From Candidatus Iainarchaeum sp. (GTDB lineage: Archaea; Iainarchaeota; Iainarchaeia; Iainarchaeales; 0-14-0-20-34-12): a stretch of DNA of 31,760 nucleotides. Positions 3,678 to 28,070 of this stretch are shown here, in pieces (within the stretch, counting starts at the first letter, position 1; the number at the start of each line of letters is the position of its first letter). The notes under the pieces were generated by a model. The model did no database searches. It was given only the letters and a program-made list of their open reading frames with translations, and was not told where the DNA came from. The stretch covers positions 1 through 31,760 of the forward strand of contig JAUSKK010000033.1 of the NCBI GenBank assembly GCA_030649345.1, written 5' to 3'. Position numbers and translations under genes: made by a program.

Positions 3678-4963
3678 TACTTCGACCCCAGGCCTACATA
3701 GGTAAATCCTAAATTTCTCATTTTTTGCGGATTGTATAAATTACGTGCATCAATTAAAACAGAATTTTTCATCAAAGACTTTGCTTTCACAAAATCTAAT
3801 TCTTTGAATTCATTCCATTCAGTCACCAAAATCACAGCATCCATATTCTTGAATACATCATACACGGAAGAAACATATTCTGTTTCCGAAAACAATTTTT
3901 TGGAATTCTCCATAGCCACTGGATCAAATGCTTTAATTTCAGCACCTTCTTTTTTCAATAAATCCATAATCACTAAACTCGGAGCATCTCTCATATCATC
4001 GGTGTCCGGCTTAAACGCCAAACCCAATAAACCAACCTGTTTTCCCTTTAAATTGCCCAAAACTTTTTTTAATTTTTCGACTGGCAATTTTTTCTGCAAA
4101 TCATTCGAATGATAAGCTGCTTGAGCTACACTTAAATTTACATGAGCTTGATTTCCAATCGAAATTAAACCAATCACATCTTTTGGAAAACATGAACCCC
4201 CCCATCCGCAGCCGGCTTTCAAAAAAGCTTTCCCAATTCTGGCGTCTAAACCCATGCCTTCTGCAACCAATCGAACATCCGCATTTACAGCATCGCATAA
4301 ATTGGCCACTTCATTAATGAAAGAAATCTTCACAGCCAAAAAAGCATTGCTGGCATACTTAATCATTTCCGCAGTTTTGACATCAGTAAACAAAATTTCT
4401 GCATTCAATGGAGCGTACAAGTCACCCAATGTTTTCTTAATCGATTCAGAATCCGCGCCAATCACAACCCGATCTGGTTCCATAAAATCTTTGATTGCAT
4501 TGCCTTCTCTTAAAAATTCTGGATTGGATACCACATGAAATTTTCCTTTATAATATTTTGAAATAATTTCCGAAACTAAATCACCAGTTCCAACTGGAAC
4601 TGTACTTTTATTAATAATTATTTTTTCATTCGTCATATTTTTTCCAATGGTTTCCGCAACACTTTTCACATACTTTAAATCCGGAGTTCCATCTTGGTCT
4701 TGCGGAGTTCCAACTGCAATAAAAATAATTTCGGAATTCTGCACAGCTTTTCCAACATCCGTAGTAAAACTCAAACGCTTTGCTTGAACATTTCGTTCAA
4801 TAATTTCTTCCAATCCAGGTTCGTAAATCGGACAATGACCTGCGTTCAACAGTTCAATTTTCTTGGAATCAATATCTCCGCAAATGACTGTATTTCCTAA
4901 ATCCGCAAAACAAGCACCGGCCACTAAACCAACGTACCCTGTACCCAAAACAGCAATTTTCAT
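3677..4963 (-). CDS. ugd: UDP-glucose 6-dehydrogenase
   Basis: MKIAVLGTGYVGLVAGACFADLGN is the Rossmann region. GGSCFPKD contains the catalytic Cys. LGLAFKPDTDDMRDAP is the C-terminal UDPG_MGDP_dh motif. Confidence 0.92.
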   Translation of the reverse strand: MKIAVLGTGYVGLVAGACFADLGNTVICGDIDSKKIELLNAGHCPIYEPGLEEIIERNVQAKRLSFTTDVGKAVQNSEIIFIAVGTPQDQDGTPDLKYVKSVAETIGKNMTNEKIIINKSTVPVGTGDLVSEIISKYYKGKFHVVSNPEFLREGNAIKDFMEPDRVVIGADSESIKKTLGDLYAPLNAEILFTDVKTAEMIKYASNAFLAVKISFINEVANLCDAVNADVRLVAEGMGLDARIGKAFLKAGCGWGGSCFPKDVIGLISIGNQAHVNLSVAQAAYHSNDLQKKLPVEKLKKVLGNLKGKQVGLLGLAFKPDTDDMRDAPSLVIMDLLKKEGAEIKAFDPVAMENSKKLFSETEYVSSVYDVFKNMDAVILVTEWNEFKELDFVKAKSLMKNSVLIDARNLYNPQKMRNLGFTYVGLGSK

Positions 4964-5016
4964 TAAAATTCCTCGGATTTTAAATACTTAAAATTTGTTT
5001 CAGATTTTAAATTCAT
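4963..5016 (-). promoter_or_regulatory. candidate 17-codon leader uORF (MNLKSETNFKYLKSEEF*) ending in TAATG on the ugd start codon
   Basis: The ATG (complement of 5014-5016) is directly preceded by the hairpin/SD module also found in front of rpl10 and the PHP gene. The stop (complement of 4963-4965) shares one nucleotide with the ugd ATG (4961-4963). Confidence 0.35.
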
Positions 5017-5039
5017 TAAAATCGCCCTTGCAATTTTAA
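5014..5039 (-). promoter_or_regulatory. SD-in-loop hairpin module, copy A (TTAAAATTGC-AAGG-GCGATTTTA-ATG in gene sense)
   Basis: Arms are 5016-5025 and 5030-5039, with one G-U position. The loop is AAGG in sense. The ATG follows immediately. Confidence 0.5.
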
Positions 5040-5130
5040 ATATTTAAAATTTCTTGTTTCAAATTTTAAACCCACAAAAAACACCTTATTTCCAGCATTT
5101 AAACGCATTTTATACTAGTTTAGATAAAAG

Positions 5131-13337: not shown

Positions 13338-14174
13338 CTAAACTTTTTCATTTAAAACAACAGCTTGTTGGTTAGCTTTAGCCAATAATTCTTCTGTTGT
13401 AACTTTGTTAACTACTCCGGCTTCTACAGCAACAGCTTTAGCATCTCTGAATGCTTTTTGTACAAACATTTCACAATTGTCTTTAGTAACATAACCTAAT
13501 TCAAATGCTAAATTGAATGCATTTCTATAAGCTTTAGAAAAGTCATTGAATACTTGATCTGTGTCAATATTTAATATAGCTTTTTGGTACACTTGGCCTT
13601 TTTCATAAGCAACCACTACATTCAAGCTGACTTTCAATGGACGAATATCTAATTTAGATAAAACACTGGCCACTTGAGGAGAAACAATTTCTCCTTGTTT
13701 GGTTACAATTTTTTCTTTCGTAATTGCAATGGTCGGCCCTTTCACTTGAACAGTCAAACCCACTCCTTTCAGTTCACTTAAAGCAGGACCTGGAGGTAAA
13801 CCAGTGTCTCCTTCAGGTACAACTAAATCAATCGGAGTAATGGTTCCAGGTTTAACTGCAGCACTTAATTGTTTTTTCTTAATTTCAGCATACAATTCAA
13901 ATGCATCCAATTTACTGAAAATAATTCCAACTGGACCATCCAAAGTACTTCCCAGAATAGCAGTATCAATGCCGTGTTCTTGCAAGGCTTTTTTAATAAC
14001 TTTATTTTTAGAAATTGTCATCTTGGCTCTAGGATACAATGCTTTTCGTACTTCTTGAAATAAAGAAGCTCTGGTATTTCGCAAGTCCGTTAAAGCAATC
14101 ACAGGATAATCTTTCAAGTCTTGCTTTAATTGAGCTAAAGACTTTTCTTTCCAAGCAAATGAATGCGTTTTCAT
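13338..14174 (-). CDS. rpl10: 50S ribosomal protein uL10 (P0), short form
   Basis: It sits between L1 and P1 as in the conserved archaeal cluster. It has the L10 N-terminal domain pattern and spine-helix-like FVQKAFRDAKAVAVEAG. It ends at 278 aa without an acidic tail. Confidence 0.88.
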   Translation of the reverse strand: MKTHSFAWKEKSLAQLKQDLKDYPVIALTDLRNTRASLFQEVRKALYPRAKMTISKNKVIKKALQEHGIDTAILGSTLDGPVGIIFSKLDAFELYAEIKKKQLSAAVKPGTITPIDLVVPEGDTGLPPGPALSELKGVGLTVQVKGPTIAITKEKIVTKQGEIVSPQVASVLSKLDIRPLKVSLNVVVAYEKGQVYQKAILNIDTDQVFNDFSKAYRNAFNLAFELGYVTKDNCEMFVQKAFRDAKAVAVEAGVVNKVTTEELLAKANQQAVVLNEKV

Positions 14175-14197
14175 TTAAAATCGCCTCGCGATTTTAA
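14172..14197 (-). promoter_or_regulatory. SD-in-loop hairpin module, copy B (TTAAAATCGC-GAG-GCGATTTTAA-ATG in gene sense)
   Basis: Perfect 10-bp arms lie at 14175-14184 and 14188-14197, with a 3-nt loop. The rpl10 ATG (complement of 14172-14174) follows directly. Confidence 0.6.
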
Positions 14198-14249
14198 AAG
14201 CGTTTAAATTTTGCAAATTTAAATTCATAAATGTACACCTAGTTAATAA

Positions 14250-17041: not shown

Positions 17042-17242
17042 TTACTGGGCTCCACCCAATTTGGTTATAGTAAAAACCAAGAATACAATATATCCAACCA
17101 GCGAAAGAATTATAATTCCAATTCCAACAATTTTAACCATGCCTTTGTATTCATTGCTTTTGGGTTTCTTGGCAATAGCTAACACTCGTTTGGAATCAGA
17201 GAAAAAATTTCTCAAAGACTGAATTGGATTCATATTAATCAA
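17042..17242 (-). CDS. secE: protein translocase subunit SecE / Sec61-gamma
   Basis: It has a single C-terminal TM helix (IVGIGIIILSLVGYIVFLVF) after a basic KKPKSNEYK segment, and sits in the conserved position. The track start at 17242 is a TTG. The ATG at 17231-17233 (MNPIQSL...), with GGTG upstream, is the more likely start. Confidence 0.8.
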   Translation of the reverse strand: MINMNPIQSLRNFFSDSKRVLAIAKKPKSNEYKGMVKIVGIGIIILSLVGYIVFLVFTITKLGGAQ

Positions 17243-17317
17243 TGCACCAAACTTTTTTTAAAAAAAATTTGATTAAAAACCTCTGGATTGAATTGGATTC
17301 ATATTAATCTTTGCACC
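17220..17317 (-). repeat. duplicated secE translation-initiation region (copies 17220-17248 and 17289-17317), with the upstream copy opening a 9-codon uORF
   Basis: TGAATTGGATTCATATTAATC is identical at 17220-17240 and 17289-17309, and TGCACC is also shared, giving 27 of 29 positions. The upstream copy encodes MNPIQSRGF* (complement of 17273-17302), which mimics the SecE N-terminus MNPIQSLRNF. Confidence 0.6.
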
Positions 17318-27910: not shown

Positions 27911-27977
27911 TGAATTTCACAACCTACAACATATATATTTGAACAACTTTTAATATATACATGAATTTAGATTTTAC

Positions 27978-28001
27978 TGAAAAATGCAGCTGCATTTTTC
28001 A
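27978..28001. promoter_or_regulatory. 24-bp perfect palindrome TGAAAAATGCAGCTGCATTTTTCA (candidate shared operator)
   Basis: I verified the dyad base by base. Its centre (27989/27990) is 79.5 nt from the orphan-3 ATG (27910) and 78.5 nt from the PHP ATG (28068). Confidence 0.55.
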
Positions 28002-28005
28002 TATA

Positions 28006-28022
28006 CGCAATTATAAATTGCG
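28006..28022. promoter_or_regulatory. inverted repeat CGCAATT-ATA-AATTGCG enclosing a TATA-like core
   Basis: It has perfect 7-bp arms. The core TTATAAATT is a plausible TATA box for the PHP gene, about 50 nt upstream of its ATG. Confidence 0.4.
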
Positions 28023-28044
28023 GTATGTTACAAAATTTAAAAAT

Positions 28045-28070
28045 TTAAAATCGCAGAGGCGATTTTAATG
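28045..28070 (+). promoter_or_regulatory. SD-in-loop hairpin module, copy C (TTAAAATCGC-AGAG-GCGATTTTA-ATG)
   Basis: Perfect 10-bp arms lie at 28045-28054 and 28059-28068, and their sequence is identical to copy B. GAGG lies at 28056-28059. The last arm base is the A of the PHP ATG. Confidence 0.6.

Follow-up and report, generated by a model that had tools for sequence, protein, structure and literature searches.

A MIRU-like palindromic repeat on start codons of a DPANN archaeon probably keeps its genes expressed by translational coupling

INTRODUCTION

In a 31,760-nt stretch of archaeal DNA (the window), closely similar hairpins presenting Shine-Dalgarno (SD)-like purines at the loop directly abut the ATG codons of unrelated genes. 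What such a hairpin is, and how a gene is expressed with one on its start codon, are the questions raised by this locus. The first-pass annotation of the window had proposed a portable translation-initiation or regulatory module and named an RNA thermometer-like element, a protein- or RNA-binding site, and a REP-like element captured at starts as candidates. Here, the hairpins are identified as the 3' end units of a multi-copy palindromic repeat that is specific to this lineage and copied exactly onto gene start codons. Genes that carry the module are probably still translated, by ribosomes that pass on to them from a mini-ORF running through the repeat.

The host (assembly G000; 1.316 Mb in 55 contigs, 34.5% G+C, 94.6% complete) is a tiny uncultivated DPANN archaeon, and the window encodes the archaeal proteins L1, L10/P0, and L12.

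RESULTS

Hairpins at start codons of the window

Direct inspection of the window recovered the three palindromes letter for letter as first described, at rpl10, at a gene for a PHP-domain protein, and in the leader of ugd. A further hairpin was found at the start of ugd itself. The hairpins, each written in gene sense, are as follows.

14197 to 14172, minus strand: rpl10 hairpin with start codon, TTAAAATCGC-GAG-GCGATTTTAA-ATG
14174-14198, minus strand: rpl10 terminal hairpin (H2), TTTAAAATCGC-gag-GCGATTTTAAA, stem of 11 bp
28045-28070, plus strand: PHP hairpin with start codon, TTAAAATCGC-AGAG-GCGATTTTA-ATG
28045-28068, plus strand: terminal hairpin (H2) of the PHP-domain gene, TTAAAATCGC-agag-GCGATTTTAA, sharing its last A with the ATG at 28068
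5039 to 5014, minus strand: distal ugd hairpin with start codon, TTAAAATTGC-AAGG-GCGATTTTA-ATG
5016-5039, minus strand: distal ugd terminal hairpin, TTAAAATTGC-aagg-GCGATTTTAA, with one T.G pair, ending on the ATG at 5016-5014
4963-4983, minus strand: hairpin at the start of ugd itself, TTAAAATCC-GAG-GAATTTTAA, with one mismatch

The final stem A of rpl10 H2 is the A of the rpl10 ATG, and its GAGG lies in the loop and 3' arm; the ATG at the end of the distal ugd hairpin (5016-5014) opens a second ugd mini-ORF. Two details of the original description required correction. The palindromes had been credited with 10-bp arms, but the stems are 10 to 11 bp long with the A of the ATG included, and the third copy contains one T.G pair. 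The statement that other genes in the window use plain sites was not entirely right, since the start of ugd carries a fourth hairpin of the same family.

The claim that these are not chance symmetries was upheld: TTAAAATYGC-N3-4-GCRATTTTA occurred at 3 sites (6 strand-hits) in the window, compared with 0 in 100 dinucleotide-preserving shuffles. A search of the whole genome for the same strict pattern yielded one further copy (C14:3112-3134), with an ATG directly after it, and this copy shares 41 identical bases with the PHP copy, reaching upstream of the palindrome. Folded in isolation as RNA, the hairpins had energies of −8 to −10 kcal/mol and z-scores of −3.8 to −6.8.

A genome-wide family with covarying stems

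When one mismatch was allowed, a census of the genome returned 43 candidates. Of these, 39 were convincing, and all 39 are placed on the ATG of an ORF no shorter than 40 aa. The three window hairpins thus represent the CGC/GCG variant within a family of at least 39 modules spread over a 1.3-Mb genome. A module ends in TTTAAAA(T/A)xx, a loop with GGAG, GGGG, or GAGG, and xx(A/T)TTTTAA(A)TG, and the 3' arm usually shares its final A with the ATG. The pattern TTTAAAA-N7-15-TTTTAAATG had 25 matches in the genome, versus 2 for the reversed pattern, and perfect stems of at least 10 bp numbered 140, versus 45 to 54 in third-order Markov controls. Random placement of copies relative to genes was not borne out by the census: family copies nearly always adjoin an ATG and carry a GGAG-type core at the loop, as expected of a portable translation-initiation module. 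The idea of a REP-like element captured at starts also fits, with whole modules at unlinked loci being 80 to 93% identical and tandem module copies present at ugd and on contigs C12 and C14. We infer from this that the element is copied by some route.

The genes served with Pfam support include those for L10/P0, the PHP-domain protein, UDP-glucose dehydrogenase, L21e, TBP, S6e, Spt4, DnaJ, L10e/uL16, a class II aminoacyl-tRNA synthetase, S12, and proteasome beta. Judged from translations only, topoisomerase VI A and B, aCPSF1, A-type ATPase subunits, SdhA, mevalonate kinase, GlmM, and HisD are also served. This diversity of housekeeping functions argues that the genes are not a regulon.

Only the outer TTAAAA/TTTTAA (six pairs) is invariant across the 39 copies, and loops vary from 2 to 12 nt. 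Stem positions 7 to 9 occur as T-A, A-T, C-G, and G-C, the partner changing too, and 24 inner-stem types are present, the CGC/GCG arms being one. Covariation was measured by an end-anchored pair count with a partner-shuffle test. At positions 7 to 10, 123/156 pairs were Watson-Crick, compared with 65.8 ± 6.0 (maximum, 88) when 3' arms were shuffled among copies. MAFFT plus RNAalifold, applied to 26 modules, gave a poor, structure-inconsistent alignment with 6 pairs. Mismatches in imperfect stems (3 U.G versus 4 C.A and 1 G.A) showed no clear G.U bias, and by the pair count an excess of wobble was limited to position 10, adjoining the SD. Multi-copy imperfect palindromes with compensatory stem changes are what characterizes REP/REPIN sequences, and the modules share these features.

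These data bear on whether the palindrome is an operator for a dimeric transcription factor with rpl10, the PHP gene, ugd, and the C14 gene as its regulon. A perfect 10- to 11-bp dyad between a TATA-like box and the start codon occupies the usual position of archaeal repressor sites. However, only the outer TTAAAA/TTTTAA is fixed, and positions 7 to 10 change on both arms together, which is the signature of a structure or palindrome and not of a fixed half-site. The variable loops, the unrelated genes, and the absence of the site in relatives also speak against a shared repressor. The protein-binding operator offered by the first-pass annotation was therefore rejected as an archaeal repressor site, on account of covarying half-sites and unrelated gene content, and we regard it as highly improbable.

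In spite of the widely varying loops and inner stems, G is present at positions −12 to −9 from the new ATG in 62 to 81% of copies. The 16S rRNA ends in ...GGAUCACCUCCU, and the GGAG-type core in or beside the loop is complementary to this tail. A few modules serve no gene; they have perfect stems and no GGAG in the loop.

C15:15489-15514: solo module
C17:12733-12758: solo module
C39:28147-28229: solo chain

Because solo stems are perfect and yet lack GGAG, the palindrome is taken to be intrinsic to the element, with the SD kept only where a gene depends on it.

Module layout and retained upstream starts

Three features had been overlooked in the original description: the SD hairpin is the last unit of a longer palindrome chain, an older start with its own SD or TATA is kept upstream of it, and a mini-ORF crosses the chain to end on the new ATG. 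The whole module is a chain of 2 to 5 AT-rich hairpins, 45 to 140 nt in all, that starts directly after another start codon. A second palindrome lies ∼27 nt upstream of the SD hairpin, and long versions add two or three more. The modules of the window have the following features.

14236-14240, minus strand: retained older SD of rpl10, AGGTG, 7 nt before the upstream ATG at 14228
14203-14223, minus strand: first rpl10 hairpin (H1), TTTAAATTT-gca-AAATTTAAA, with a TATA-like 3' arm
14175-14228, minus strand: rpl10 mini-ORF, MNLNLQNLNAFKIARRF, whose stop TAA (14177-14175) lies directly before the rpl10 ATG (14174-14172)
27961-28068, plus strand: PHP mini-ORF, 35 codons from the ATG at 27961, whose stop is the TAA of TAATG (28066-28068)
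5014-5075, minus strand: distal ugd module, with the SD AAGGTG, 6 nt, GTG (5075-5073), and a 19-codon mini-ORF that ends with TAATG on the ATG at 5016-5014
4961-5016, minus strand: proximal ugd module, ATG (5016)...TTAAAATCC-gag-GAATTTTAA-TG, with a 17-codon mini-ORF that ends with TAATG on the ugd ATG at 4963-4961

At rpl10, the L1 stop is 21 nt upstream of the ATG at 14228, and the chain begins directly after that start (junction ...taactAGGTGtacatttATG / aatttaaatttgcaaaatttaaacgcttttaaaatcgcgaggcgattttaa / ATGaaaacgcat). The rpl10 mini-ORF reads ATG (14228-14226) AAT TTA AAT TTG CAA AAT TTA AAC GCT TTT AAA ATC GCG AGG CGA TTT TAA. The PHP mini-ORF passes three palindromes (27978-28001, 28006-28022, and H2), and the two tandem ugd modules lie downstream of AAGGTG-N6-GTG.

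The upstream starts look native. An SD-like tetramer was found at −16 to −4 in 27/37 of them, compared with a 10% background, and six others had no SD but had a TATA hexamer at leaderless distance (−35 to −22). The PHP gene belongs to this leaderless class, with a ATATATAT box ∼27 nt upstream of the ATG at 27961. Non-family genes, taken from a crude ORF-based call and restricted to those with at least 60 nt of upstream spacer, showed a TATA hexamer peak at −31 to −27 from the ATG and a T at −1. TATA and SD were anticorrelated among them (185 with TATA only, 114 with SD only, and 32 with both), which suggests that leaderless mRNAs are common in this genome. The TTTAAAA in the 3' arm of H1 sits at −33 to −26 from the new ATG, close to the leaderless TATA position of the genome (−31 to −23).

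This placement raises the alternative of a portable promoter that acts at the DNA level, with the H1 3' arm (AAATTTAAAA) as TATA and transcription starting 2 to 5 nt before the new ATG. The module could then fire its own near-leaderless transcript, making SD and coupling unnecessary, and the last palindrome would lie outside the functional mRNA, filling the gap between TATA and transcription start. The prevalence of leaderless mRNAs, the position of TTTAAAA, and the perfect palindromes of gene-less solo copies are all compatible with such a promoter, which is itself compatible with coupling. However, the TATA-like box of the modules is 2 to 4 nt upstream of the genome mode, and the GGAG core is strongly kept in gene-serving copies and missing in solos, which argues that the SD is used and hence that the hairpin is transcribed. 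Half of the modules lie in tight operons and would be read through anyway, and a promoter leaves both the open coupled frames and the conserved SD unexplained. We therefore consider the promoter an unlikely account of the modules.

Mini-ORFs that end on the new start codons

In 28/39 modules, the frame set by the upstream start stays open across every hairpin and ends at 0 (TAA-ATG), +1 (TAATG), or +4 (ATGA) relative to the new start. In five of the remaining 11/39 modules the frame stops at +8 to +50, and six modules have no such frame. From base frequencies, the chance of 17 open codons at module composition was estimated as ∼15%; since the copies share ancestry, part of the excess of open frames was inherited, and the set does not amount to 39 independent tests. 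All five copies with an ATGA junction have an A after the ATG. Nineteen of 38 modules lie at most 40 nt after a co-directional ORF, often at −4, +1, or +2, and these modules inside tight operons must be transcribed within polycistronic mRNA.

The arrangement points to translational coupling. From 5' to 3', an old SD or leaderless promoter is followed by the old start, the hairpin chain, and a final hairpin that carries GGAG in the loop or 3' arm; this 3' arm ends in TAA(A)TG, so that the element itself supplies the new start codon. The old initiation signals would load ribosomes, which would translate a mini-ORF of 15 to 45 codons through the hairpins and unfold the last one. Termination would then occur on or against the new AUG (UAA-AUG, UAAUG, or AUGA), with re-initiation aided by the SD of the element, a combination of termination-reinitiation coupling and RNA unfolding. 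Coupling of this kind would make the insert nearly neutral for expression, which could explain why it is tolerated before ribosomal-protein, TBP, ATPase, and topoisomerase genes.

A hairpin that encloses the initiation site could also be regulatory in itself, as a thermometer-like or otherwise structure-gated element in which warming or a factor releases the stem-held portion of the SD, along with the first base of the AUG, and thereby tunes translation. Part of the SD is indeed in the 3' arm, paired with CC(T) of the 5' arm, and the stem ends on the A of the AUG, so that pairing of the SD and/or AUG in a 5'-UTR hairpin, a trait of fourU/ROSE-type RNA thermometers, is seen here. The folding energies of these A-U-rich stems are in the range of known thermometers, and DnaJ is among the genes served. 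On the other hand, the genes form a broad housekeeping mix (L10, L21e, S6e, S12, TBP, Spt4, aminoacyl-tRNA synthetase, and proteasome) with no stress theme, unlike the heat-shock or virulence genes with which such thermometers are associated. The chain's upstream hairpins, which lack an SD, are palindromes just as perfect, relatives run the same genes with no hairpin, and stem mismatches show no clear sense-strand G.U bias. Gating of this sort appears improbable to us as the role of the hairpins.

Insertion and distribution within the order

The rpl10 module was compared with the same locus in relatives. L10 identity to the closest relatives was at most 52% (40 nearest genomes), and a search of genome contigs for close relatives with the L10 protein returned none. 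In 19/19 relatives examined, the L1 stop adjoins or overlaps the L10 start, the SD is inside the end of the L1 gene, and there is no spacer; the 75-nt L1-L10 spacer is found only in G000 among these genomes. The rpl10 module is therefore an insertion relative to its relatives, as judged from this comparison of loci.

Matches to the family pattern were counted in 196 genomes of the order.

G000: 25 matches
G173: 9 matches
G033: 7 matches
The other 193 genomes: 0 to 4 matches each, mostly non-hairpin

G173 and G033 come from different families of the order than the host, and the two genomes of the host's own family had one match each. Modules in G033 and G173 consist of an SD, an ATG, a first hairpin, an SD hairpin, and an ATG, include tandem and long forms, and have coupled mini-ORFs too. 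They serve S28e, phosphomannomutase-like, E1-alpha-like, Pth2, and signal-peptidase-like genes. The three host orthologs that were examined (of the G033 S28e, E1-alpha-like, and Pth2 genes) have plain starts. By these sequence comparisons, two other lineages carry the same design at non-orthologous genes.

Such patchiness, with 25, 9, and 7 matches in three genomes and at most 4 elsewhere, would also be expected of a purely selfish or neutral repeat. The SD, ATG, and open frame would then be what remained after selection removed harmful insertions, and the hairpin would reflect copying only; solo modules with perfect stems and neither SD nor gene, together with the tandem arrays, agree with this. 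The neutral repeat differs from the coupled repeat only by denying that the coupling is used, and the frame statistics, the retained upstream SDs, and the conserved GGAG indicate selection on features that preserve expression. We consider strict neutrality improbable, and continue with coupling as the probable reading.

How the element moves was approached through transposase genes. Y1_Tnp (PF01797) had no match in the 94.6%-complete host assembly, and the same search matched 6 control genomes. Searches of the assembly for DDE_3, DDE_Tnp_1, and OrfB_IS605 were likewise negative, although metagenome-assembled genomes often lack insertion sequence copies, so that these absences are weak evidence. 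No clear target duplication was found at the modules beyond a possible ATG. With no transposase of the four families and no defined duplication, the element lacks the marks of a MITE of a DDE or IS200/605 transposon as far as these searches go.

DISCUSSION

We conclude that the hairpins probably belong to a MIRU-like repeat that sits on start codons and keeps the genes behind it expressed by translational coupling. Mycobacterial interspersed repetitive units (MIRUs) are inserted where genes start and contain an ORF coupled to the gene (Supply et al. 1997, as summarised in PMC12548453). The archaeal element and MIRUs have in common short units (about 50 nt), single or tandem, at start codons and inside operons, an internal ORF whose stop overlaps the downstream start, and little effect on expression, the last of which would be expected of the archaeal modules if coupling operates. 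As for MIRUs, the archaeal modules are a many-copy single or tandem repeat in operon spacers, and the stop falls on the new start in the 28 coupled modules of G000 and likewise in G173. In contrast to MIRUs, the element occurs in a DPANN archaeon, consists of perfect AT-rich palindromes, and holds its SD in a hairpin, and its junctions are TAA-ATG, TAATG, or ATGA and are not confined to a −4 spacing. No sequence kinship is expected, and since the host is an archaeon of 34% G+C, the likeness to MIRUs is best taken as an analogy of design and not as membership.

Other repeats resemble the element in part. Like REP, BIME, and REPIN sequences, which are multi-copy extragenic palindromes of 20 to 35 nt, it is often clustered and shows compensatory stem changes. 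Unlike REPs, which are found mainly downstream of genes and require a RAYT (Y1) transposase, its copies are on start codons in sense orientation, and a cognate RAYT was not detected, there being no Y1_Tnp in the assembly. Neisseria Correia/REP2 elements and Rickettsia palindromic elements (RPEs) are also small palindromic repeats that land beside or inside genes, where they provide expression signals or keep the reading frame. Correia elements are marked by TA duplications and by promoter and IHF sites, and RPEs are inserted in frame within coding sequence. In neither case is the repeat bound to a start codon with a coupled mini-ORF, as it is in the archaeal modules.

The proposed mechanism has precedents at individual loci. 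In MS2 coat-lysis and E. coli rpmI-rplT, structure-occluded ribosome sites are opened by upstream translation (PMC12548453). There, as in the modules, the downstream SD and AUG are in a hairpin, and translation of the upstream ORF terminates close to or at the start codon, which lets the ribosome unfold the site. The MS2 and rpmI-rplT sites are single evolved loci between real genes, whereas the archaeal module is a repeated cassette with a mini-ORF as a by-product. Models of coupling by RNA unfolding and by reinitiation (PMC12548453) match the mechanism proposed here for the module.

A more far-reaching reading is that the element is a self-propagating DPANN "expression cassette" aimed at start codons, for example by RNA- or translation-linked copying. 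The 50-nt unit would then combine a leaderless TATA, a hairpin-gated SD, and a coupled mini-ORF, with which a reduced genome could rewire or insulate core genes (those for TBP, ribosomal proteins, and ATPase). We offer this as a speculative possibility with perhaps a slim chance of being correct. To our knowledge, no start-codon-targeted element of such kind is known in archaea, and a literature search on DPANN SD/hairpin repeats found nothing relevant.

If the coupled-repeat reading is right, the element would be an archaeal counterpart of MIRUs that has reached about 3% of genes in a symbiont-type genome of 1.3 Mb, among them core genes of translation and transcription, without killing them. 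Data on archaeal termination-reinitiation are scarce (PMC12548453), and the modules would provide a natural set of ∼40 "old start/new start" pairs with which to study it, along with hairpin-occluded sites. The repeat would also mislead start-codon calls and predictions of "promoter motifs" and "operators" in these genomes.

Gene-start classes and paired modules

Gene starts across the whole genome fell into two classes. Leaderless-type starts lack a Shine-Dalgarno (SD) sequence; relative to the ATG, they have a TATA hexamer between −31 and −27 and a T in position −1. SD starts carry their SD near −9. TATA and SD were anticorrelated (185 starts with TATA only, 114 with SD only, and 32 with both). 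One hairpin module belongs to the TBP gene and another to the L21e gene, which is transcribed divergently from it; 280 to 290 nt lie between the two modules (C2:15615 and C2:15960).

Palindrome upstream of the PHP gene

The mini-ORF upstream of the PHP-domain gene, 35 codons long, contains the following element:

Window 27978-28001, perfect 24-bp palindrome, core GAAAAATGCAG|CTGCATTTTTC

Its position inside the mini-ORF makes it part of the hairpin chain of the PHP module and rules out an independent divergent-promoter operator.

Modules without an ATG and a second hairpin family

A complete SD-hairpin module, TTTAAAAAA-caggaggt-TTTTTTAAA, lies at C33:20217-20242 (minus strand), where the next codon is ATA, not ATG. 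From this ATA, an open, pilin-like frame (INSKAFNLFTALVGMILIVL...) runs into a 473-aa ORF, suggesting from sequence that the start of this gene is noncanonical or mutated. At three further sites in the genome, solo modules or hairpin chains serve no start codon:

C15:15489-15514, solo module or chain
C17:12733-12758, solo module or chain
C39:28147-28229, solo module or chain

Their stems are perfect (10 to 11 bp) and their loops lack the GGAG core; one of them has the TTTAAAATCGC arms of the hairpin that recurs at rpl10, the PHP gene, and the ugd leader.

A hairpin family distinct from the start-codon modules has the unit GCGC-ATTAAAAC(N)-N3-4-(N)GTTTTAAT-GCGC. Its units are grouped in twos or threes, away from start codons, outside the window:

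C14:7790-7874, GCGC-flanked hairpin cluster
C20:8444-8491, GCGC-flanked hairpin cluster
C25:3994-4040, GCGC-flanked hairpin cluster
C39:6507-6553, GCGC-flanked hairpin cluster
C36:5501-5594, GCGC-flanked hairpin cluster

Duplication at the secE start

The secE start region, ATTAATATGAATCCAATTCA(A/G)TC, has a second copy 69 nt upstream (window 17220-17317, minus strand). An AT-rich T8A7 palindrome separates the two copies, and a 9-codon ORF begins at the upstream one. Judged by its sequence, the arrangement looks like an insertion whose flanks are long duplicates of the initiation region, and it may bear on the origin of the inserts at start codons.
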